Below are positions 2,080 through 13,683 of a DNA stretch of 13,683 nt, in pieces (position 1 is the first letter of the stretch; the number at the start of each line of letters is the position of its first letter). Below the pieces are notes generated by a model. The model ran no database searches. It saw only the letters and a list, made by a program, of their open reading frames with translations, and was not told the origin of the DNA. The position numbers and the translations under genes are program-made. This DNA comes from a virus. Lineage: Duplodnaviria > Heunggongvirae > Uroviricota > Caudoviricetes. Location of the stretch: the IMG/VR virus record IMGVR_UViG_2879742664_000002; one strand, 5' to 3'.

Positions 2080-3097
2080 CGCCGACTGCCTGGAATTTAT
2101 CTGGTCGTTACCCGAAAATTCTGTTGACCTGATAGTCACGGACCCGCCGTACTTTAAAGTGAAGCCTGAGGGCTGGGATAACCAGTGGAAGGGCGACGAT
2201 GATTACCTGAAGTGGCTGGAGCAGTGTCTGGCGCAGTTCTGGCGGGTGCTGAAACCTGCCGGAAGTCTTTACCTGTTCTGTGGTCATCGCCTGGCATCTG
2301 ATATCGAAATCATGATGCGTGAACGCTTCAGTGTGCTGAACCATATTATCTGAGCGAAGCCGTCCGGACGCTGGAACGGATGCAACAAGGAAAGCCTGCG
2401 GGCGTATTTCCCCGCCACAGAGCGCATTCTGTTCGCGGAACATTATCAGGGGCCGTACCGCCCGAAAGATGATGGCTATGAGGCGAAGGGCAGTGCACTG
2501 AAACAGCATGTGATGGCCCCGCTGATTTCTTACTTTCGTGATGCGCGAGCTGCCCTGGGGATAACGGCAAAACAGATTGCAGATGCCACAGGAAAGAAAA
2601 ACATGGTGTCGCACTGGTTCAGTGCCAGTCAGTGGCAGTTGCCGAATGAAAGCGATTATCTGAAATTACAGGCGCTGTTTGCCCGGGTGGCAGAAGAGAA
2701 GCATCGGCGTGGTGAACTGGAAAAGCTCCACCACCAGCTGGTGGATACGTATACCTCACTGAACCGGCAGTATGCGGAGCTGCTGAGTGAATATAAACAT
2801 CTGCGGCGGTATTTTGGCGTGACGGTGCAGGTGCCGTATACCGATGTGTGGACGCATAAACCGGTGCAGTTCTATCCCGGGAAACATCCGTGCGAAAAAC
2901 CGGCAGAAATGCTGCAGCAGATAATCAGCGCTAGCAGTCGTCCGGGTGACCTGATTGCAGATTTTTTCATGGGGTCGGGTTCGACAGTGAAAGCGGCACT
3001 GGCGCTCGGGCGTCGTGCAATTGGCGTTGAGCTGGAGACTGAACGTTTTGAGCAGACGGTTCGGGAAGTACAGGATTTAGTCAGCCAGAACGGATGA
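2080..3097 (+). pseudogene. Beta-class DNA methyltransferase (DPPY type, probably N6-adenine), N-terminally truncated by IS1 and interrupted by in-frame TGA at 2351-2353
   Basis: A single frame carries motif IV (LIVTDPPY), an HPCEKP motif, and motif I (DFFMGSGST) near the C-terminus, with stop at 3095-3097. The only interruption is TGA 2351-2353 in the sequence NHII*AKPSGRWNG. No native start codon downstream of the IS1 end; first in-frame start (TTG 2066) lies inside IS1. Confidence 0.7.
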
Positions 3098-3137: not shown

Positions 3138-3213
3138 GGCCCTTTAGCTCAGTGGTGAGAGCGAGCGACTCATAATCGCCAGGTCGCTGGTTCAAATCCA
3201 GCAAGGGCCACCA
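3138..3213 (+). tRNA. ileZ: tRNA with CAT anticodon, ileX/ileY-like (tRNA-Ile2, lysidine-type; tRNAscan would call it Met)
   Basis: Hand-folded cloverleaf: acceptor ggccctt/aagggcc, D arm gctc-agtggtga-gagc, anticodon stem agcga/tcgcc with loop ctCATaa, T arm gctgg-ttcaaat-ccagc, discriminator A, encoded CCA. Gene symbol follows the prophage tRNA trio of Stx phages as recalled. Confidence 0.85.
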
Positions 3214-3220
3214 TCACATA

Positions 3221-3297
3221 CCGCCATTAGCTCATCAGGAAAGAGCGCCAGCCTTCGAAGCTGGCTGCGCGGGGTTCAAGTCCCCGATGGCGGTCCA
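3221..3297 (+). tRNA. argN: tRNA-Arg, anticodon read as TCG
   Basis: Hand-folded cloverleaf: acceptor ccgccat/atggcgg, D arm gctc-atcaggaaa-gagc, anticodon stem ccagc/gctgg with loop ctTCGaa, T arm cgggg-ttcaagt-ccccg, encoded CCA. Anticodon and symbol assignment are from manual folding and memory, not a tRNA-finder run. Confidence 0.75.
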
Positions 3298-3310
3298 TTA
3301 TCTGCATCAT

Positions 3311-3387
3311 GCGTTGTTAGCTCAGCCGGACAGAGCAATTGCCTTCTAAGCAATCGGTCACTGGTTCGAATCCAGTACAACGCGCCA
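3311..3387 (+). tRNA. argO: tRNA-Arg, anticodon TCT (reads AGA)
   Basis: Hand-folded cloverleaf: acceptor gcgttgt/acaacgc, D arm gctc-agccggaca-gagc, anticodon stem attgc/gcaat with loop ctTCTaa, T arm actgg-ttcgaat-ccagt, discriminator G, encoded CCA. Confidence 0.8.
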
Positions 3388-3427: not shown

Positions 3428-3623
3428 AAATGTCTCACAATTCAGACGGTTGACTGTTGTCTGGTTTGCGGGGAGTTTGTTAAAAGAAACTGGCATGGTG
3501 AATCCCCCTGTGCGGAGGGGCAATCAGCGAGTAGGTATATGGGATAATCGCGGATTCAGGTGCTGGTACTGAATTCACCGGGAGGCACCCGGCACCATGC
3601 AATGGCACATAGCGCCACTCTCC

Positions 3624-3650
3624 AGCCCCTCTCCGGAGGGGCTTTCTTGT
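3624..3650 (+). terminator. GC-rich hairpin with T-rich tail (candidate plus-strand terminator)
   Basis: 8-bp stem agcccctc (3624-3631) / gaggggct (3636-3643), loop tccg, then ttcttgt. Confidence 0.4.
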
Positions 3651-3653
3651 GGG

Positions 3654-3683
3654 CAAAAAAAGCCCGCGCTGGGAGACGCGGGC
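3654..3683 (-). terminator. Candidate minus-strand rho-independent terminator
   Basis: Stem gcccgcg (3662-3668) / cgcgggc (3677-3683) with 8-nt loop, preceded on the plus strand by an A7 run, i.e. hairpin followed by T7 when read on the minus strand. Confidence 0.4.
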
Positions 3684-3876: not shown

Positions 3877-4956
3877 ATGGCTTTTAAACACTATGATGTT
3901 GTCAGGGCGGCGTCGCCGTCAGATCTTGCGGAAAAGCTGACACATAAACTGAAAGAGGGCTGGCAGCCGTTTGGTAGTCCGGTGGCCATAACCCCTTATA
4001 CTCTGATGCAGGCGATTGCAGCAGAAGGTGCAGTAATCAGCGCCACCAGCGACCCGGAGTATTACTTTGTTGTGGTTCTGGCAGGGCAGTCAAACGGCAT
4101 GTCGTATGGTGAAGGCCTTCCGCTGCCGGGGACATATGACCGTCCGGACCCGCGTATTAAGCAACTGGCGCGTCGCAGTACGGTGACACCGGGCGGTGCA
4201 GCATGCAAATATAACGACATCATTCTGGCGGACCATTGTCTGCATGATGTGCAGGACATGAGCCGTCTTAACCATCCGAAAGCGGACCTGTCAAAGGGGC
4301 AGTACGGAACCGTGGGGCAGGGGCTGCATATCGCCAAAAAACTGCTGCCGTTTATACCGGCGAATGCGGGCATTCTGCTGGTTCCGTGCTGTCGTGGTGG
4401 TTCAGCGTTCACCACCGGAGCTGATGGCACATACAGTGACGCGAGTGGTGCCTCGGAGAATTCAACCCGCTGGGGTGTGGACAAGCCGCTGTATAAGGAC
4501 CTTATCGGTCGAACAAAAGCGGCACTGGAGAAGAACCCGAAAAATGTGCTGTTTGCCGTGGTGTGGATGCAGGGGGAATTTGATTTTGGCGGTACGCCGG
4601 CAAATCATGCCGCACAGTTTGGTGCGCTGGTTGATAAATTCCGTGCAGACCTGGCGGATATGGCAGGCCAGTGCGTCGGTGGCTCTGCTGGCGGTGTTCC
4701 CTGGATATGCGGGGACACGACGTATTTCTGGAAGCAGAAGAACGAATCCACGTACCAGACGGTGTACGGCAGCTATAAAAATAAAACGGAAAAGAATATC
4801 CATTTCGTACCGTTCATGACCGATGAGAACGGGGTGAATGTGCCGACGAACAAACCGGAAGAAGACCCGGACATTCGGGGTATCGGTTATTACGGTTCGA
4901 AATGGCGTGACAGCTCAGCCACCTGGACGTCACAGGACAGGGCGAGCCATTTCTAG
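3877..4956 (+). CDS. Prophage NanS-p-like sialate O-acetylesterase (N-terminal DUF1737-like region plus SGNH/SASA esterase domain), probably C-terminally truncated
   Basis: ATG 3877 with GGGAGGA RBS (3866-3872). Translation begins MAFKHYDVVRAASPSDLAEKL... and contains the esterase motif VVVLAGQSNGMSYGEG. ORF ends at TAG 4954-4956, exactly where IS66-like sequence begins; relatives are recalled as roughly 600 aa or more. Confidence 0.7.
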   Translation: MAFKHYDVVRAASPSDLAEKLTHKLKEGWQPFGSPVAITPYTLMQAIAAEGAVISATSDPEYYFVVVLAGQSNGMSYGEGLPLPGTYDRPDPRIKQLARRSTVTPGGAACKYNDIILADHCLHDVQDMSRLNHPKADLSKGQYGTVGQGLHIAKKLLPFIPANAGILLVPCCRGGSAFTTGADGTYSDASGASENSTRWGVDKPLYKDLIGRTKAALEKNPKNVLFAVVWMQGEFDFGGTPANHAAQFGALVDKFRADLADMAGQCVGGSAGGVPWICGDTTYFWKQKNESTYQTVYGSYKNKTEKNIHFVPFMTDENGVNVPTNKPEEDPDIRGIGYYGSKWRDSSATWTSQDRASHF

Positions 4957-5291
4957 ACTGGCCCCCTGAATCTCCAGACAACCAGTATCACTTAAATAAG
5001 TGATAGTCTTAATACTAGTTTTTAGACTAGTCATTGGAGTACAGATGATTGATGTCTTAGGGCCGGAGAAACGCAGACGGCGTACCACACAGGAAAAGAT
5101 CGCAATTGTTCAGCAGAGCTTTGAACCGGGGATGACGGTCTCCCTCGTTGCCCGGCAACATGGTGTAGCAGCCAGCCAGTTATTTCTCTGGCGTAAGCAA
5201 TACCAGGAAGGAAGTCTTACTGCTGTGGCCGCCGGAGAACAGGTTGTTCCTGCCTCTGAACTTGCTGCCGCCATGAAGCAGATTAAAGAAC
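4957..5291 (+). mobile_element. IS66-family left-end fragment (leader plus 5' part of orf1), cut by IS629
   Basis: Contains an orf1 (HTH_Tnp_1-type, ISEc8-like as recalled) preceded by an 88-bp leader with palindromes. Right boundary is the IS629 left terminus at 5292. Left boundary is approximate; no GTAAGCG-type terminus seen at this end. Confidence 0.5.
5045..5291 (+). pseudogene. IS66-family orf1/TnpA (helix-turn-helix accessory protein), 3'-truncated by IS629
   Basis: ATG 5045 with GGAG RBS. Translation [58 protein letters not shown]...MKQIKEL runs into the IS629 terminus after about 82 codons; the tail NRPGNPGD of the ORF is IS629-encoded. Confidence 0.6.
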
Positions 5292-5345
5292 TGAACCGCC
5301 CCGGGAATCCTGGAGACTAAACTCCCTGAGAAAGAGGTAAACAGG

Positions 5346-5672
5346 ATGACTAAAAATACTCGTTTTTCCCCCGAAGTCCGTCAGAGGGCGATTCGTATGG
5401 TTCTGGAAAGTCAGGGCGAATATGACTCACAGTGGGCGGCAATTTGTTCCATTGCCCCAAAGATTGGCTGTATACCGGAGACTCTGCGTGTCTGGGTACG
5501 CCAGCATGAGCGGGATACCGGAGGCGGTGATGGCGGGCTCACCACCGCTGAACGTCAGCGTCTGAAAGAGCTGGAACGTGAAAATCGTGAACTGCGCCGC
5601 AGTAACGATATCCTTCGCCAGGCTTCCGCTTATTTTGCGAAGGCGGAGTTCGACCGCCTCTGGAAAAAGTGA
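5346..5672 (+). CDS. IS629 OrfA (HTH DNA-binding part of the transposase)
   Basis: 108-aa [45 protein letters not shown]... with leucine-zipper-like C-terminus, typical IS3-family OrfA. Confidence 0.9.
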
Positions 5673-6559
5673 TGCCACTGCTGGATAAGCTGCGTAAGCT
5701 GTACGGGGTCGGACCGGTATGCAGTGAACTACATATTGCCCCGTCAACGTATTACCACTGTCAGCAACAGCGACATCATCCTGATAAACGCAGTGCCCGT
5801 GCGCAGCGCGATGACTGGCTGAAGAAAGAGATACTGCGCGTATACGATGGGAATCATCAGGTATACGGTGTGCGTAAAGTCTGGCGTCAGTTGTTACGGG
5901 AAGGTATCAGAGTGGCCAGATGCACTGTGGCACGTCTCATGGCGGTTATGGGACTTGCCGGTGTTCTCCGGGGTAAAAAGGTCCGTACGACCATCAGCCG
6001 GAAAGCCGTTGCCGCAGGCGACCGCGTAAACCGTCAGTTCGTGGCAGAACGACCTGACCAGCTGTGGGTGGCTGATTTTACTTACGTCAGCACATGGCAG
6101 GGCTTCGTCTATGTGGCGTTCATTATTGATGTGTTTGCCGGATACATCGTGGGGTGGCGGGTCTCATCGTCCATGGAAACGACATTCGTGCTGGATGCTC
6201 TGGAGCAGGCGTTATGGGCCCGTCGACCGTCCGGCACGGTCCATCACAGTGATAAAGGTTCTCAGTATGTATCGCTGGCCTACACACAGCGGCTTAAGGA
6301 AGCCGGATTACTGGCATCAACAGGAAGTACAGGCGACTCGTATGACAACGCGATGGCGGAGAGCATCAATGGTCTTTACAAAGCGGAGGTAATACACCGT
6401 AAGAGCTGGAAAAACCGTGCAGAAGTGGAACTGGCCACACTCACGTGGGTGGACTGGTATAATAATCGACGATTGCTGGAAAGGCTGGGCCACATCCCTC
6501 CGGCAGAAGCAGAAAAAGCTTATTATGCTTCCATCGGAAACGATGATCTGGCAGCCTGA
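5669..6559 (+). CDS. IS629 OrfB (DDE catalytic domain; expressed as OrfAB by -1 frameshift)
   Basis: 296-aa ORF overlapping the orfA end in the -1 frame; DDE-type integrase-fold hallmarks ([24 protein letters not shown]). Confidence 0.9.
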
Positions 6560-6602
6560 GTTCACAGATAAAACACTCTCCAGGAAACCCGGGGCGGTTC
6601 AG

Positions 6603-6953
6603 GGTGAGGGTGGTGAAGGCCATCTGAGTTCTTTCTTTGTCCAGACAGATAAAGCCAGTATTAATGTTGCATACCATCATACAGTTAATCAACAAAAAGA
6701 ACTTGGCACGTTTGGCGCATTCGACCATGACTGGCATACGCTTGCATTTAAATTTAAGGGCAGTAACAGCATTAATGTTACTCCGGTGCTTGATGGTGTG
6801 GATGGACAGGCGTTTGACCTGGTGAAATGGGCCAATACTGCTAATGGACTCAACAGGTTTGTCATTACGGATATTACAGGTAGTGCAGAAACCTACCCTG
6901 TACTTATTGATACGGTGGAAGTTAAAGCAAACAAAGCTGGAGCAGCCGCATAA
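6603..6953 (+). pseudogene. Start-less C-terminal ORF fragment (116 codons) resuming at the IS629 right end; possibly the displaced 3' part of the nanS-p-like gene
   Basis: Reading frame is open from the first base after IS629 to TAA 6951-6953 (GEGGEGHLSSFFVQTDKASINVAYHH...VEVKANKAGAAA); no start codon outside the IS. Assignment to nanS-p is inference only. Confidence 0.4.
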
Positions 6954-6958
6954 TTGCT

Positions 6959-6995
6959 AAAAAAAGCCGCCAGCGGCAGGAATGGAAGCTGGCGG
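6959..6995 (-). terminator. Hairpin with flanking A/T run (minus-strand-oriented intrinsic terminator or bidirectional stop)
   Basis: 8-bp stem ccgccagc (6967-6974) / gctggcgg (6988-6995), 13-nt loop, A7 run at 6959-6965 on the plus strand (T7 after the hairpin on the minus strand). Confidence 0.35.
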
Positions 6996-7092
6996 AGGTA
7001 ATCCCAATGGAGAATGTAAAGAAAAGATGCTTTCGTACATTGGTTTTTTAAATGAAAACAATTCTCATTGTCAACCATAACGGTAAGAAATT

Positions 7093-7275
7093 ATGACATT
7101 TATTCATCAGGTGATGCTGTACTTCTGTACGGCGGTCTGTGTGCTGTATCTTCTTTCGGGTGGGTACAGGGCTGTGCGCGATTTCTGGTGCAGGCAGATT
7201 GATAAAAGGGCCGCTGAGAAAATCAGCGCCAGTCAGTCAGCCGGAAGCAAACCCGAAGAACCCGTTACTCCTTAA
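7093..7275 (+). CDS. Hypothetical small protein with hydrophobic N-terminus (60 aa)
   Basis: ATG 7093, weak RBS; translation MTFIHQVMLYFCTAVCVLYLLSGG... then a charged tail. Competes with an overlapping alternative frame (7139..7546); weakly supported. Confidence 0.3.
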   Translation: MTFIHQVMLYFCTAVCVLYLLSGGYRAVRDFWCRQIDKRAAEKISASQSAGSKPEEPVTP

Positions 7276-7300
7276 CAACCCCTTTCAGCGAGAAAATCCC

Positions 7301-7546
7301 ATGTCAGAAATCACATCCCTGGTCACTGCAGAGGCAGTGAAGGAAGTCCTGCGCTCTGAAGAAGTCCGGAGCGCACTGAAACAGAAACTTCGCCAGAATC
7401 TTGAGTCGCGTCTTGATGCAGAAGTGGATGCCATTCTGGATGAGCTGCTGGGCGTAGCAGCGGTTCCTGAGCCGGAAGGTATCGCGGGTGACGGGAGTGC
7501 TTCAGATGGCGGTGAACCTACACCTGACAGCGACATGATGATGTAA
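7301..7546 (+). CDS. Hypothetical acidic protein (81 aa)
   Basis: ATG 7301 after a purine-rich stretch (gagaaaa); helical-looking, strongly acidic C-terminus (...[26 protein letters not shown]). Lies immediately upstream of the holin. Confidence 0.45.
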
Positions 7547-7622
7547 GCATGCGCAAGGGACCATCGGTGTGTGCCGGTGGTCTTTATATTGTTGTGAGCT
7601 TCCGGATTGCGGGAGACGGGGT

Positions 7623-7838
7623 ATGTACCAGATGGAAAAAATCACAACAGGTGTGTCATACACCACGTCAGCGGTGGGAACGGGCTACTGGTTCCTGCAG
7701 TTGCTGGACAGGTTTTCCCCGTCTCAGTGGGCGGCAATAGGCGTGCTGGGGAGTCTGTTGTTTGGGCTGCTGACATATCTGACTAACCTGTATTTCAAAA
7801 TCAGAGAGGACCGTCGTAAGGCGGCGCGGGGAGAGTAA
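7623..7838 (+). CDS. S: Holin, phage 21 S-like (pinholin type)
   Basis: 71-aa [74 protein letters not shown] with two hydrophobic segments and a basic C-terminus. RBS GGGAGACGGGG; two in-frame ATGs (7623, 7632). Confidence 0.8.
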
Positions 7839-7842
7839 AGCG

Positions 7843-8187
7843 ATGAAGAAAAAATACGAACTGGTTGTTAAAGGGATAAATAATTACCCGAATAAGATTA
7901 CTGTTACTGTGGCACTGGAAATTGGTGGGTATCCGTCACTGTTGTTGCCAGATGTGGCGATTAGTCTTGACCGTACTGAAGATGCCACGCTGGAGTTTTA
8001 CGAAGCTGAGGCGAAAAAGCAGGCGAAGCAGTTTTTCATGGATGTTGCTGCCGGGTTATGTGAAGGGGATGGTCCGTTGCCGGAAAAGCGCCCCGTAATT
8101 TTAGAGGCGCAGGATGTGTTGATAACCTACAGAGGAAAACTACCGGGAATAATTACTGGTTCTCTGAAGACTCCACCGCTGGCCTGA
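7843..8187 (+). CDS. Hypothetical soluble protein (114 aa) between holin and endolysin
   Basis: ATG 7843 only 5 bp after the holin stop with GGAGAG RBS; no hydrophobic segment; no family recognised by eye. Confidence 0.5.
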   Translation: MKKKYELVVKGINNYPNKITVTVALEIGGYPSLLLPDVAISLDRTEDATLEFYEAEAKKQAKQFFMDVAAGLCEGDGPLPEKRPVILEAQDVLITYRGKLPGIITGSLKTPPLA

Positions 8188-8237
8188 AGACTTAACATAT
8201 CCAGGGATTTGAAATCGATAAACCCTGATAAATATCC

Positions 8238-8771
8238 ATGAACACCAAAATCAAATACGGCCTGTCGGCTGCCGTTCTGGCGCTGATTGCCGCAGGTGCG
8301 CCTGCGCCTGAAATCCTCGACCAGTTTCTGGATGAAAAGGAAGGTAACCACACCACGGCATACCGTGATGGCGCGGGTATCTGGACCATCTGCCGCGGTG
8401 CCATCCTGGTGGATAGTAAACCTGTCGTCCCGGGCATGAAGTTGTCGAAGGAAAAATGCGACCAGGTCAACGCCATTGAGCGTGATAAGGCGCTGGCATG
8501 GGTGGAGCGCAATATTAAAGTGCCGCTGACCGAACCCCAGAAAGCGGGTATCGCGTCATTTTGTCCCTATAACATTGGCCCCGGTAAGTGTTTCCCGTCG
8601 ACGTTTTACAGACGGATTAATGCTGGTGACCGCAGGGGAGCATGCGAAGCGATTCGCTGGTGGATTAAGGACGGTGGCAGAGACTGCCGTATCCGCTCAA
8701 ATAATTGCTACGGTCAGGTATCCCGGCGAGACCAGGAAAGTGCGCTGGCGTGCTGGGACATCGACAGATAA
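8238..8771 (+). CDS. R: SAR endolysin (T4-lysozyme-like GH24 muramidase with N-terminal signal-anchor-release segment)
   Basis: 177-aa ORF; N-terminal Gly/Ala-rich weakly hydrophobic segment (GLSAAVLALIAAGAPAP) followed by the catalytic E...D...T signature (EGNHTTAYRDGAGIWTICRG). Confidence 0.85.
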   Translation: MNTKIKYGLSAAVLALIAAGAPAPEILDQFLDEKEGNHTTAYRDGAGIWTICRGAILVDSKPVVPGMKLSKEKCDQVNAIERDKALAWVERNIKVPLTEPQKAGIASFCPYNIGPGKCFPSTFYRRINAGDRRGACEAIRWWIKDGGRDCRIRSNNCYGQVSRRDQESALACWDIDR

Positions 8772-8861
8772 GCAGAATATTTTGCTGAAAATAAGGCATG
8801 AGCACGCGGACGGATAACACGAAATCCTGCGAACTGGCGAAACGTAAGTGAATAAAAGTAA

Positions 8862-8900
8862 AAACCCCGTTTGTTGGCACCAGGCGGGGTTTTGTGTTTC
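8862..8900 (+). terminator. Intrinsic terminator/attenuator-like hairpin between R and the downstream small ORFs
   Basis: Stem aaaccccg (8862-8869) / cggggttt (8885-8892), extendable with G-U pairs to about 13 bp, followed by tttgtgtttc. Confidence 0.5.
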
Positions 8901-8926
8901 TGACCTTGAGTAAGGCAAGGGAGAAC

Positions 8927-9109
8927 ATGGCGAAGTATAAACGAATTCTGTTGAGGTTGACCATGAAAAACGGCCTTGAACTGAAAGCGCCTGTAACTGA
9001 TGACATCAGCAGAGCACTGGCTTTTGCCATTAAGTGGGTGGCGGTCGGTGTTGCTGTGTCCCCGATGCTGTATGGGCTGGCAAAACTGGTCATTGCGTTG
9101 AAATCGTGA
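8927..9109 (+). CDS. Hypothetical small membrane protein (60 aa)
   Basis: ATG 8927 with AAGGGAG upstream; basic N-terminal half (MAKYKRILLRLTMKNG...) and one C-terminal hydrophobic helix (WVAVGVAVSPMLYGLAKLVIAL). Confidence 0.4.
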   Translation: MAKYKRILLRLTMKNGLELKAPVTDDISRALAFAIKWVAVGVAVSPMLYGLAKLVIALKS

Positions 9110-9123
9110 AGGGAGGATTAAGC

Positions 9124-9255
9124 ATGTCAGACAAACTCATAACGCTGGCGAAGATCCTCTGTGTAATTGTCGGCATTTCATTTTCACTAATGCTGGTTGC
9201 TCTTTTTCTTTCCATGGCCTGGATGATGTTGTCTTCGTCGGGGCTGCTGGGGTGA
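9124..9255 (+). CDS. Hypothetical small hydrophobic protein (43 aa), translationally coupled to Rz
   Basis: ATG 9124 with strong GGGAGGA RBS at 6-nt spacing; almost entirely hydrophobic (ITLAKILCVIVGISFSLMLVALFLSMAWMML); stop TGA 9253-9255 overlaps the Rz GTG start (9252-9254). Confidence 0.45.
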   Translation: MSDKLITLAKILCVIVGISFSLMLVALFLSMAWMMLSSSGLLG

Positions 9256-9650
9256 ACATAAACCGAATGCTTTCCGCGTTTACCGTTATTCTGCTGGTGG
9301 TCTGTGGTGCGCTGTGGCTGGCAACAGACCATTACCGTGATAACGCCATCACCTACAAAGCGCAGCGCGATAAAAAAGCCAGAGAGCTGGAGCTGGCAAA
9401 CGCAACCATTACTGACATGCAGCAGCGCCAGCGTGATGTTGCCGCTGGTCGTAAGCGCCTGCGGATCAACGCCACCTGCTCCGGTACCGTGCGTGAAGCC
9501 ACCGGCACCTCCGGAATGGATAATGCAACCGGCCCCCGACTGGCAGACACCGCTGAACGGGATTATTTCACCCTCAGAGAGCGGTTGATGACAATGCAGA
9601 AGCAACTGGAAGGGGCGCAGGAATATATCCGCACTCAGTGTATTAACTAG
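9252..9650 (+). CDS. Rz: Rz inner-membrane spanin (i-spanin)
   Basis: 132-aa ORF (start GTG 9252 or ATG 9267) with N-terminal TM helix then HYRDNAITYKAQRDK...RLADTAERDYFTLRERLMTMQKQLEGAQEYI, closely resembling lambda Rz as recalled. Confidence 0.85.
   Translation: MNINRMLSAFTVILLVVCGALWLATDHYRDNAITYKAQRDKKARELELANATITDMQQRQRDVAAGRKRLRINATCSGTVREATGTSGMDNATGPRLADTAERDYFTLRERLMTMQKQLEGAQEYIRTQCIN
9436..9588 (+). CDS. Rz1: Rz1 outer-membrane lipoprotein spanin (o-spanin), embedded in the +1 frame of Rz
   Basis: ATG 9436 inside Rz; MLPLVVSACGSTPPAPVPCVKPPAPPEWIMQPAPDWQTPLNGIISPSESG has a lipobox (VSAC) and proline-rich body like lambda Rz1. Confidence 0.8.
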   Translation: MLPLVVSACGSTPPAPVPCVKPPAPPEWIMQPAPDWQTPLNGIISPSESG

Positions 9651-9673
9651 TATTTTTGTTATCCGGAGAATGC

Positions 9674-9898
9674 ATGAAGAAATTACTGGTAACCGTAAAG
9701 CCTTTTCAGGGAACAATTCCGTTCCGTATTTTGCAGCGTGGTCGTGTTCTTGTTGAAGGTTCGTTCAGTGGTAAATGTACGCAATTACACTCCCGGACCT
9801 TTCAGGTGAATGCCACGAATGAAGAGCTAACCGTTGAGTGTACGATGAATGCCGCTAAATGCCGCATGGTATCCGCTGCATTACAGCCAGTGTGTTGA
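9674..9898 (+). CDS. Hypothetical small protein (74 aa, four Cys)
   Basis: ATG 9674 with GGAGA RBS at 5-nt spacing, 24 bp after the Rz stop; no signal peptide or TM segment; no recognisable family. Confidence 0.45.
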   Translation: MKKLLVTVKPFQGTIPFRILQRGRVLVEGSFSGKCTQLHSRTFQVNATNEELTVECTMNAAKCRMVSAALQPVC

Positions 9899-10222: not shown

Positions 10223-10236
10223 TATCTGTGCCGGGA

Positions 10237-10569
10237 ATGAAAATGAAAAGAAACCTTCCGTTAATTATTTTGTTGTCTTCTCTGGTTATGGGCTGTACGC
10301 AACATAAAACAGATATGCCCCGACAGTTGGTTAAGGCATTACCACAATATCCGGCCTATGCAGCGGCAAATTATATAAAGGGACGGGTTGATGTGAAGTT
10401 TGATATTGGTGCTGATGGTACTGTCACCCGAATTGAGTTTATCCGTTCAGAGCCGCACCATTTGTTTGATGAGCAGGTTGTAAAGGCGATGGCAAAATGG
10501 CGATTTGAGAAGGACAGGCCGTGTAAAGGCGTGAAGAAAACGTTTATCTTTAGTCCTTCTGCACCCTGA
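10237..10569 (+). CDS. Lipoprotein with TonB C-terminal domain (TonB_C-like), prophage accessory gene
   Basis: Signal peptide with lipobox (MKMKRNLPLIILLSSLVMGC, Thr at +2). Mature region PQYPAYAAANYIKGRVDVKFDIGADGTVTRIEFIRSEPHHLFDEQVVKAMAKWRFE aligns by eye with E. coli TonB C-terminal domain ([34 protein letters not shown]...FEREVKNAMRRWRYE). Start could be ATG 10237 or 10243. Confidence 0.75.
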   Translation: MKMKRNLPLIILLSSLVMGCTQHKTDMPRQLVKALPQYPAYAAANYIKGRVDVKFDIGADGTVTRIEFIRSEPHHLFDEQVVKAMAKWRFEKDRPCKGVKKTFIFSPSAP

Positions 10570-10986: not shown

Positions 10987-12415
10987 GTAAGCGTCAACGG
11001 AGCACCGTATTGACGCTTATTTATTGGTGAGTGCTACGTTCCATGGCAGGAGTTCGTCAACACGGTTGGAAGGCCATTCCGGCAGTACGCTCAGGATATA
11101 GCGCAGATACGCTTCCGGATCGATACCGTTCAGTCGGCAGGTGCCGATCAGCCCGTACAGTAGCGCACCACGCTCTCCACCGTGATCGCTGCCGAAGAAC
11201 ATAAAGTTTTTCTTTCCGAGACAGACTGCACGAAGCGCTCTTTCCGCGGCATTATTATCCGCCTCAGCCAGACCATCATCACTGAAGTTGCACAACGCAA
11301 CCCAGTGCTTCCTGATATACCGGAACGCATCTCTCAGACGGCATTTTTTCGATAACGTGTGTTCTTTCTCCTGCATCAGCTTATACAGGGAAGTCAGTAG
11401 CGGTTTACTCTGCATTTGCCTGACCGCCAGGCGTTCAGACACCGGCAACCCGCGTATTTCGTGCTCGATGGCGTACAGCTCACCGATTAGTTTCAGGGCT
11501 TCTTCCGCTGTCGCGCTTTTGGTACTGATATATACATCGTGGACTTTGCGCCGCGCATGAGCCCAGCATCCTGCTTCCGTCAACGCGCCGCCTTCTCGTT
11601 CGGCACTGAACAGCCGATCGTAACCATTAAACGCATCTGCCTGCAGGATACCCCGGAAGGGACTAAGGTGCTGCTCCGGATGTTTACCCTGATGGTCCGG
11701 TGAGTAGGCGAACCAGACCGCCGGAGGCTCTGGCGAACCGGCATTCCTGTCATCCCGGACATACGTCCAGATATATCCTGTTTTCGCCTTCTTCCTGCCC
11801 GGTGCCAGCACTTTTACTGGTGTGTCATCAGTGTGAACTTTGCGGCTGTTCATTACATAACGGTACAGAGCATCATTCAGCGGCGTCATTAACTGGCAGC
11901 ACGCGTCAACCCAGTTGGAGAGTAATGCACGGCTCAGTTCGACACCCTGACGGGCAAAAATTTCACTCTGACGATACAGTGGCAGGTGTTCGCAGTATTT
12001 TCCCGTTAACACGCGGGCAAGTAACCCCGGGCCCGCGATACCACGCTCTATCGGACGGGATGGTGCCGGTGCTTCAACGATGCAGTCACATTTTGTACAG
12101 GCTTTTTTTACCCGTTCTGTGCGGATCACTTTCAGAGCGCTGCTCACCAGTTCCAGTTGTTCTGCGCTGACTTCCCCCAGATAATCCAGCTCACCGCCAC
12201 ACTCCGGGCAACAGCTTTCTTCTGGCTCCAGGCGATTTATTTCGCGGGGCAGATGCTCCGGTAACGGGCGACGATGACGAGACTGTCGCAACTGGCGGGG
12301 AACCTGCGGATCGTCTTCCCGCCCACTGTAACGATCACTGTCCTGTTCGCGTTGTTTCAGCAGGGCCTCAGCCTGTTCAACTTCACGACGCAGTTTTTCA
12401 GAACGGGTACCGAAC
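10987..12415 (-). mobile_element. IS66-family element, right-end portion (terminal repeat plus tnpC), truncated by IS629
   Basis: GTAAGCG terminal motif at 10987-10993 (typical IS66 terminus as recalled); tnpC-type ORF on the minus strand; abuts the IS629 left terminus at 12416. Confidence 0.7.
11017..12415 (-). pseudogene. IS66-family transposase TnpC (DDE_Tnp_IS66 type), 5'-truncated by IS629
   Basis: Frame open from the IS629 junction with no ATG (FGTRSEKLRREVEQAEALLKQ... then CCPECGGEL zinc-ribbon motif, LPLYRQSEIFARQGVELSRALL, DDTPVKV, C-terminal LLPWNV); stop at 11017-11019. About the first 50 codons are missing. Confidence 0.8.
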
Positions 12416-12469
12416 TGAACCGCCCCGGGAATCCTGGAGACTAAACTCCCTGAGAAAGAGGTAAACAGG

Positions 12470-12796
12470 ATGACTAAAAATACTCGTTTTTCCCCCGAAG
12501 TCCGTCAGAGGGCGATTCGTATGGTTCTGGAAAGTCAGGGCGAATATGACTCACAGTGGGCGGCAATTTGTTCCATTGCCCCAAAGATTGGCTGTACACC
12601 GGAGACTCTGCGTGTCTGGGTACGCCAGCATGAGCGGGATACCGGAGGCGGTGATGGCGGGCTCACCACCGCTGAACGTCAGCGTCTGAAAGAGCTGGAA
12701 CGTGAAAATCGTGAACTGCGCCGCAGTAACGATATCCTTCGCCAGGCTTCCGCTTATTTTGCGAAGGCGGAGTTCGACCGCCTCTGGAAAAAGTGA
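12470..12796 (+). CDS. IS629 OrfA (copy 2)
   Basis: 108-aa ORF identical to copy 1 except Ile to Thr at residue 43 ([12 protein letters not shown]). Confidence 0.9.
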
Positions 12797-13683
12797 TGCC
12801 ACTGCTGGATAAGCTGCGTAAGCTGTACGGGGTCGGACCGGTATGCAGTGAACTACATATTGCCCCGTCAACGTATTACCACTGTCAGCAACAGCGACAT
12901 CATCCTGATAAACGCAGTGCCCGTGCGCAGCGCGATGACTGGCTGAAGAAAGAGATACTGCGCGTATACGATGGGAATCATCAGGTATACGGTGTGCGTA
13001 AAGTCTGGCGTCAGTTGTTACGGGAAGGTATCAGAGTGGCCAGATGCACTGTGGCACGTCTCATGGCGGTTATGGGACTTGCCGGTGTTCTCCGGGGTAA
13101 AAAGGTCCGTACGACCATCAGCCGGAAAGCCGTTGCCGCAGGCGACCGCGTAAACCGTCAGTTCGTGGCAGAACGACCTGACCAGCTGTGGGTGGCTGAT
13201 TTTACTTACGTCAGCACATGGCAGGGCTTCGTCTATGTGGCGTTCATTATTGATGTGTTTGCCGGATACATCGTGGGGTGGCGGGTCTCATCGTCCATGG
13301 AAACGACATTCGTGCTGGATGCTCTGGAGCAGGCGTTATGGGCCCGTCGACCGTCCGGCACGGTCCATCACAGTGATAAAGGTTCTCAGTATGTATCGCT
13401 GGCCTACACACAGCGGCTTAAGGAAGCCGGATTACTGGCATCAACAGGAAGTACAGGCGACTCGTATGACAACGCGATGGCGGAGAGCATCAATGGTCTT
13501 TACAAAGCGGAGGTAATACACCGTAAGAGCTGGAAAAACCGTGCAGAAGTGGAACTGGCCACGCTCACGTGGGTGGACTGGTATAATAATCGACGATTGC
13601 TGGAAAGGCTGGGCCACATCCCTCCGGCAGAAGCAGAAAAAGCTTATTATGCTTCCATCGGAAACGATGATCTGGCAGCCTGA
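12793..13683 (+). CDS. IS629 OrfB (copy 2; expressed as OrfAB by frameshift)
   Basis: 296-aa ORF matching copy 1 at the protein level; stop codon is the last three bases of the window. Confidence 0.9.

Follow-up and report, generated by a model that had tools for sequence, protein, structure and literature searches.

Is the small gene situated between the holin and endolysin genes of this prophage a part of the lysis machinery, and if not, what might its product do? The open reading frame is at positions 7843–8187 (+ strand) of the window, i.e. the whole 13,683 nt stretch of DNA that was analyzed. It starts with ATG and consists of 114 codons followed by a stop codon, as stated in a first-pass annotation of this DNA. 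It is a ydfR-family gene on the basis of matches to PF07041 and phrog_406, and is referred to here as ydfR.

The gene upstream of ydfR encodes a phage-21-type class II holin (pinholin) at positions 7623–7838 (+ strand), with matches to PF04971 (E-value = 1.5e-32) and to phrog_9876/phrog_20, annotated as ‘holin’. There are two candidate start codons, ATG at 7623 (71 codons) and ATG at 7632 (68 codons), and the 216 nt form is listed as ‘class II holin family protein’ in RefSeq (loci L001 and L003). The holin gene terminates with TAA at 7836–7838 and the ydfR ATG follows after 4 nt. A Shine-Dalgarno sequence, GGGGAGAG, is found at positions 7828–7835 (+ strand), 7–9 nt upstream of the ydfR ATG and embedded in the final holin codons. 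The first-pass annotation had assigned the open reading frame its own ribosome binding site, which proves correct, and had placed it 5 bp after the S stop codon and 50 bp before R; the second distance stands and the first is 4 nt.

The two possible holin starts lie in a region (positions 7623–7634) that encodes M-Y-Q-M. In phage 21 the dual start is M-K-S-M, where the extra lysine is thought to make the long form an antiholin. Because the two start regions differ in this way, the long holin product of the window would be without the antiholin lysine.

Downstream of ydfR is a 50 nt spacer (positions 8188–8237, + strand) which ends with ...cctgATAAATATCC-ATG, a sequence block that is kept before R in every cassette with ydfR. 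A Shine-Dalgarno-like run was not found in these 50 nt. The endolysin gene R, which encodes a T4-type lysozyme, occupies positions 8238–8771 (+ strand) and matches PF00959 (E-value = 2.8e-24) and phrog_7 (‘endolysin’). The N-terminal region of the endolysin is weakly hydrophobic and rich in Gly and Ala, and looks, from its sequence and in the light of phage 21 R, like a signal-anchor-release (SAR) segment.

No promoter-like site was seen on the + strand at positions 6900–9700, where the counts of such sites do not exceed those in shuffled sequence. An own promoter for ydfR, or a terminator that isolates it, was rejected because of this result, and for the same reason ydfR is probably transcribed together with the late lysis genes. 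A search of Rfam with positions 7000–9300 found no RNA elements.

The predicted YdfR protein shows neither a membrane segment nor a signal peptide in a hydropathy scan. The highest Kyte-Doolittle mean over 19 residues is 1.18, compared with 1.70 for the holin, which bears out the first-pass annotation on the lack of a transmembrane segment. YdfR is mildly acidic (pI 5.5) and the holin is basic overall (pI 9.6).

The first-pass annotation also had the protein belonging to no recognizable family, and this is refuted by the database searches. The aa sequence scores 153.1 bits with Pfam DUF1327 (PF07041), for which the gathering cut-off is 25 (E-value = 2.4e-45), over profile positions 1–92 of 93, and it matches phrog_406 with an E-value of 4e-64 across 113 of the 114 positions. 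The translation is identical to WP_000731267.1, ‘YdfR family protein’, as encoded in the complete E. coli chromosomes NZ_AP045820.1 and NZ_CP033762.1; the DNA identity to the NZ_CP033762.1 copy is 100%, and 192 records have a DNA identity to the window ydfR of 99% or more. The core motifs of the YdfR/DUF1327 family are YELVVKG..N...K.V and DR.EGA.LEFYEA.A. Core residues Y5, E6, L7, V9, K10, G11, N14, K18, V21, R44, E46, L50–E54 and A57 are kept in the window protein, but G47, which is nearly invariant in the family, is replaced by Asp (alignments A1 and A4). That the gene is an intact YdfR/DUF1327 member is nearly certain from the family matches and the identical RefSeq translation. Neither the gene nor its family or position is new: all three entered the databases with the K-12 genome and the H-19B sequence.

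The first-pass annotation had raised the prospect that homology searches would reveal a common annotated lysis cassette component of known function. The gene is a common annotated component, but the families returned for it by Pfam and PHROGs are all of unknown function and none is a lysis regulator. A search of NCBIfam gave no match to YdfR, nor did the 5027 defence models of PADLOC-DB at E-values up to 0.1, and a profile search of all PDB chain sequences gave zero matches even at an E-value of 10.

The protein consists of two parts. The DUF1327 core domain is encoded by codons 1–72 (positions 7843–8058, + strand), as delimited by an AlphaFold2 model, dN/dS values and alignments. For residues 1–76 the model has a mean pLDDT of 87.7 and a pTM of 0.77, and the five models agree. 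Predicted antiparallel strands are at residues 5–14, 18–27 and 38–43 and are followed by a long helix at residues 50–74. Residues that are nearly invariant in the core include Y5, E6, L7, K10, G11, R44, E46, G47 and L50–E54. When compared with diverged alleles, the core displays a dN/dS of 0.20–0.27, with dN about 0.44 and dS saturated (1.6–2.2 or not computable). Because dN/dS is this low at saturated dS, the codon changes indicate that the core is translated as a protein under purifying selection. Phage Evi has the core domain alone, with a chain length of 72 aa.

The remaining C-terminal tail, codons 73–114 (positions 8059–8184, + strand), has pLDDT values below 50 at residues 74–114 and is exchangeable. 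Among other YdfR members, the tail may be unrelated or missing, the same tail may follow a different N-terminus, or the chain may be extended by a coiled coil of about 70 residues. The tail DNA is nearly identical (dS about 0.09, dN/dS 0.6–1.0, with few changes) between alleles whose N-domains are saturated (dS 1.6–2.2). Since the tails are this close while the N-domains are saturated, tail conservation is explained by recent mosaic exchange, and the tail was rejected as a conserved functional motif.

A structure-based search had been recommended with the first-pass annotation, and it gave a confident N-domain fold with no significant structural match. In Foldseek the N-domain model had a best E-value of 0.14 against the PDB, and the best value against viral structures was 0.026; neither is significant. 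A double-stranded RNA-binding domain (dsRBD) was taken to need a helix, three strands and a helix, together with a significant structural or sequence match. The model is without the first helix and the recurrent structural matches to dsRBDs fall below any threshold, and this candidate was rejected as insignificant and kept as no more than a lead. HicB-like and Rv1738-like resemblances were rejected as insignificant.

Some database variants of YdfR depart from the usual chain length. One set (proteins P0001, P0002, P0010, P0067 and P0039) includes internal tandem duplications of 169 and 196 aa, holin-YdfR fusions of 184–187 aa, and one YdfR variant joined to an ANT/KilAC-type fragment. These duplications and fusions may be assembly or frameshift artefacts, or true recombinants.

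Of 5426 complete E. coli genomes, 3159 have ydfR-like DNA, with as many as 8 copies in one genome. The holin-ydfR-endolysin block is matched in 4400 genomes and is covered over at least 80% of its length in 2164. Gene order is the same in all 18 other ydfR loci that were fetched, which come from E. coli, E. ruysiae, E. albertii, Shigella and several phages. The holin/ydfR junction of the GGGGAGAG type is kept in these 18 further loci, and the distance from the holin stop codon to the ydfR ATG is 4 nt in 17 of them and 3 nt in L010. A gene between S and R had been considered unusual in the first-pass annotation; the arrangement is in fact widespread where the holin is of the phage 21 type.

An exhaustive HMMER scan of 1.84 billion protein representatives detected only 51 family proteins, counted as representatives at 50% identity, and a scan of 185,579 species genomes detected 8 ydfR loci, all in Escherichia/Shigella except for two metagenome bins that are probably mis-binned. 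YdfR is a narrow family, seen only in lambdoid prophages of Escherichia and Shigella.

Among phage records, a YdfR relative is encoded by 101, including H-19B (where the open reading frame is unannotated), BP-4795 and Stx2 phage 86, and the same holin type by 427. About three quarters of the phage records with this holin are without ydfR. The relatives are found in 41 Stx1a-converting and 15 Stx2c-converting phage records but in only 2 Stx2a-converting records, compared with 47, 17 and 124 records, respectively, for the holin. Because of these proportions, ydfR is regarded as optional and tied to phage lineage. The recommended survey of related cassettes therefore gives a fixed slot in 18/18 loci and a majority of holin-bearing phages without the gene, and it upholds the first-pass view of a well-formed accessory gene in the lysis cassette (101 vs. 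427 phage records).

Close relatives of the window gene are in Stx phages. The unannotated S-R open reading frame of H-19B (AF034975) and the genes in BP-4795, Stx1a/Stx2c phages and Stx2 phage 86 encode proteins that are 93%–97% identical to the window YdfR and of the same length, and have the same place. The name is ‘hypothetical protein’ or ‘YdfR family protein’ in BP-4795, the Stx1a/Stx2c phages and Stx2 phage 86, and H-19B has the same 50 nt spacer as the window. The H-19B-type YdfR differs from the window protein by two or three amino acids; those phages are inducible, whereas the window copy is in a degraded prophage.

The E. coli K-12 YdfR (P76160, b1555) is encoded in Qin between essQ and rrrQ and has the same DUF1327 family and slot. 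In K-12-type loci (L008 and L015–L019) a phage-21-type holin gene is followed by ydfR and then by a lysozyme gene, as in the window. There are two differences. The C-terminal tails are unrelated (SEKVESYLQHQYSFKIENPANKHERPHHKYL against CEGDGPLPEKRPVILEAQ...), and in K-12-type loci the end of ydfR and the start of the endolysin gene share 4 nt, in place of the 50 nt gap of the window.

The S-R-Rz cassettes of phage 21, VT2-Sakai and the 933W type have the same holin family but are without ydfR, and the endolysin gene is at the ydfR position. ydfR is dispensable for lysis of this kind because these cassettes do without it. The VT2-Sakai holin and endolysin are 97% and 93% identical, respectively, to those of the window, and the junction has the same Shine-Dalgarno sequence and 4 nt.

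The only experimental lead to function that was found for the family comes from the K-12 protein. With RNase G as the bait, K-12 YdfR came up three times in the bacterial two-hybrid screen of Göpel et al. (RNA Biol 2026; PMC13232886). Residues 1–72 of YdfR were positive with RNase G and RNase E constructs, and the full-length protein was positive only with Rne 1–597 (PMC13232886). Rne 1–598 co-purified with Strep-YdfR from cells, a result that does not demonstrate direct binding by YdfR, and DNase-resistant nucleic acid also co-purified with YdfR, for which the authors could not exclude a contaminating RNA binder (PMC13232886). Overproduction of K-12 YdfR altered few transcripts, and K-12 ydfR is almost without reads in standard growth (PMC13232886). 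The window YdfR is 47% identical to the K-12-type protein P0146 across residues 1–74 (E-value = 8e-22), a stretch that coincides with the interacting region (residues 1–72) of K-12 YdfR.

By homology with the K-12 protein, the best explanation, tentatively, is that YdfR takes no part in lysis and that its N-domain modulates RNA decay through RNase E late in infection; this is possible, and short of an even chance. The N-domain would have its target in the RNA metabolism of the cytoplasm. RNase G and the catalytic N-terminal half of RNase E would be its binding partners, either directly or via RNA, and in this way it may modulate host RNA decay. The gene would be translated from the Shine-Dalgarno sequence within the last holin codons and transcribed with the lysis genes, and would be an optional accessory that travels with the cassette but stands outside of the holin/endolysin/spanin machinery.

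Several points count against a role in RNA decay. The interaction with RNase E is reported only for the K-12 protein and not for the window allele; the data concern an allele that is 47% identical, and consist of two-hybrid results and in vivo co-purification. An acidic protein (pI 5.5) is unusual as a direct RNA binder. The constant slot between holin and endolysin is not explained by action on RNA decay.

Phage proteins that act on RNase E include T7 gp0.7, T4 Srd and phiKZ Dip. These are made earlier in infection, and they have other degradosome parts as their targets or work as a kinase. Should the K-12 result hold for the window allele, YdfR would resemble them by functional analogy, as a small phage-encoded protein in contact with RNase E; no relation in sequence or fold was detected.

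The constant slot is the starting point for another explanation, that YdfR is a cytoplasmic regulator of lysis timing which binds the basic C-terminal tail of the pinholin or tunes triggering. The analogy is with the small soluble protein RIII of T4, whose target is the cytoplasmic domain of holin T. YdfR resembles the antiholin cofactor RIII in being small, soluble, cytoplasmic and in a lysis context, and no homology between the two was detected; the T4 holin differs from that of the window, and ydfR is missing from most cassettes with the window holin type. In favor of such a regulator, ydfR is always directly after the holin gene with its Shine-Dalgarno sequence inside holin codons, and the protein is acidic (pI 5.3–5.5) opposite a holin that is basic overall (pI 9.6). 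In addition, the Keio ydfR deletion is a hit in a CPRG screen for envelope leakiness (PMC3879167, supplement), but this could stem from polarity of the resistance cassette on rrrQ, the endolysin gene that follows. Also against a timing regulator, about three quarters of the holin-bearing phage records have the endolysin paired directly with the holin, and Pfam, PHROGs and NCBIfam matched no lysis regulator. Furthermore, holins that are 97%–99% identical to that of the window are paired with YdfR alleles whose identity to the window protein is 100%, 67% and 58%. Holin and YdfR alleles are shuffled independently and do not co-vary. A search of the literature for a lysis role of YdfR found none. 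YdfR was not assigned to the holin-associated lysis regulators (S21-71, lambda S107; T4 RI, RIII), as it has no membrane or signal segment, no homology to them and no regular co-occurrence with a holin. Neither of the roles proposed in the first-pass annotation, a lysis regulator or a cargo protein released at lysis, gained support from the analysis, and the family's experimental lead is to RNase E and RNA in the cytoplasm. A role in lysis timing is considered unlikely.

The DNA downstream of ydfR bears on a further explanation, that ydfR is a cargo gene unrelated to lysis or RNA decay, e.g. a host-benefit or anti-phage gene, in a slot of the late operon that is permissive for recombination. 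A three-way DNA alignment shows one conserved block that extends to about codon 112 of ydfR and another of about 45 nt just before the endolysin gene. The two blocks enclose a variable cargo slot, which is nearly empty in the window (positions 8176–8192, about 13 nt), and the final two codons and stop codon of the window ydfR come from the slot junction. Strain TW10722 has about 300 nt in the slot and phage 2H10 about 480 nt, with reverse-strand genes among them. In the fetched loci the slot is located at 1988–2260 (L006), 1660–1974 (L007), 1744–2040 (L009), 1958–2218 (L010) and 1840–2330 (L011), and contains small reverse-strand genes, one with DUF1823, or a coiled-coil extension of YdfR that gives 176 aa and 183 aa forms.

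The variable contents of the holin-endolysin gap in these prophages agree with a cargo gene, as does the presence of an intact ydfR in cryptic prophages, e.g. Qin and the degraded prophage of the window. One screen also reported a 3-fold higher streptomycin MIC with multicopy ydfR (PMC12924614). Opposed to this are the lack of a match to the 5027 PADLOC defence models, the lack of a promoter-like site on the + strand at 6900–9700 and the near absence of K-12 ydfR reads in standard growth. A cargo function of this type is quite unlikely.

The sequence before R suggests an effect of ydfR in cis. In all 19 ydfR cassettes R is preceded by ATAAATAT(C/A)(C/T), and in 17 of the 19 by ATAAATATC(C/T); a purine-rich or Shine-Dalgarno-like run was not found in the R leader of these 19 cassettes. 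In VT2-Sakai, which has no ydfR, the endolysin gene comes directly after GGGGAGAG-TAA-4 nt, at the point where ydfR starts in the window. Because R is without a Shine-Dalgarno sequence when ydfR is present and has the one embedded in the holin gene when it is absent, insertion of ydfR probably also alters endolysin translation and the endolysin-to-holin ratio. The R leaders of the 19 cassettes and the VT2-Sakai junction are both consistent with a stronger version, in which ydfR takes the strong holin-linked start, the weak leader of R lowers the endolysin-to-holin ratio, and little function in trans is left for the protein. The purifying selection on the core (dN/dS 0.2–0.27 at saturated dS) and its well-defined fold argue instead for a function of the protein, and a mainly cis effect is improbable.

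That ydfR is a spurious or decaying open reading frame that is untranslated is hardly credible, as the degradation of the surrounding prophage by insertion sequences and deletions is outweighed by an intact frame, an allele that is 100% identical in other genomes (192 records at 99% or above), a Shine-Dalgarno sequence, purifying selection and a strong match to a known family.

The prophage of the window is degraded by IS elements and deletions. A lambda-type integrase gene is at positions 1–1107 (− strand), about 6.5 kb upstream of the holin gene and unusually close to the late region. IS1 is found at 1309–2082, with inverted ends at 1309–1334 and 2057–2082 and a transposase open reading frame at 1669–2064. 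It splits a DNA methylase gene, fragments of which are located downstream at 2066–2353 and 2510–3097. These are followed by three tRNA genes (3138–3384), where relatives are annotated with tRNA-Ile, Arg and Arg, and then by a full-length match to the STnc100 sRNA (3464–3654, 139 bits).

An IS3-family element is present in two copies, at 5288–6602 and 12412–13683, which display an identical 300 nt repeat, 26 nt inverted ends and an ALIL frameshift pseudoknot. The ends of the copies resemble those of IS629. At 3877–4956 is a nanS-p-type SASA esterase gene that is split by the first copy and whose C-terminal part runs to 6953. An IS66-family transposase gene is at 11017–12291 (− strand). It is preceded by an open reading frame of 113 aa (10228–10569), in a place where one would expect terminase genes. 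The predicted product starts like a lipoprotein (...LVMGC) and ends in a TonB C-terminal domain (TIGR01352, 54 bits, with the cut-off at 27).

A strong terminator-like hairpin is at positions 8861–8893, between R and Rz. It is followed by two small overlapping open reading frames, 8894–9109 (phrog_1115) and 9034–9255 (phrog_4906), with hydrophobic C-terminal halves. VT2-Sakai has an antirepressor-like ‘ant’ gene where the R-Rz gap of the window (8861–9255) has these small open reading frames, and the gap looks like a second cargo slot.

The Rz i-spanin gene (positions 9252–9650, + strand) matches PF03245 in two stretches. Compared with Rz of L001 (9558–10025) and L003 (9228–9695) it has a 75 bp in-frame deletion. 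The missing nt sequence holds the start codon of Rz1 (o-spanin) and the first part of its signal peptide. Since the deletion removes the Rz1 start, the spanin pair is probably inactive. The lysis cassette around the intact ydfR is probably non-functional, and with the prophage degraded and the spanin damaged, ydfR itself may be inactive in the window.

In H-19B, ydfR, stx and the lysis genes all point in the same direction of transcription. It is conceivable, if doubtful, that YdfR, as a modulator of RNase E and RNase G made late in infection, tunes the stability of late stx and lysis messages and in this way toxin yield or lysis timing, or that it is the first soluble cytoplasmic regulator of a pinholin/SAR-endolysin pair. 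What gives the gene its remaining interest is that it is found in most E. coli genomes and in many Stx-phage lysis cassettes without an established function, and the reported binding to RNase E makes that function testable. If YdfR alters RNA decay or lysis timing on induction, toxin release from Stx1/Stx2c lysogens could change.
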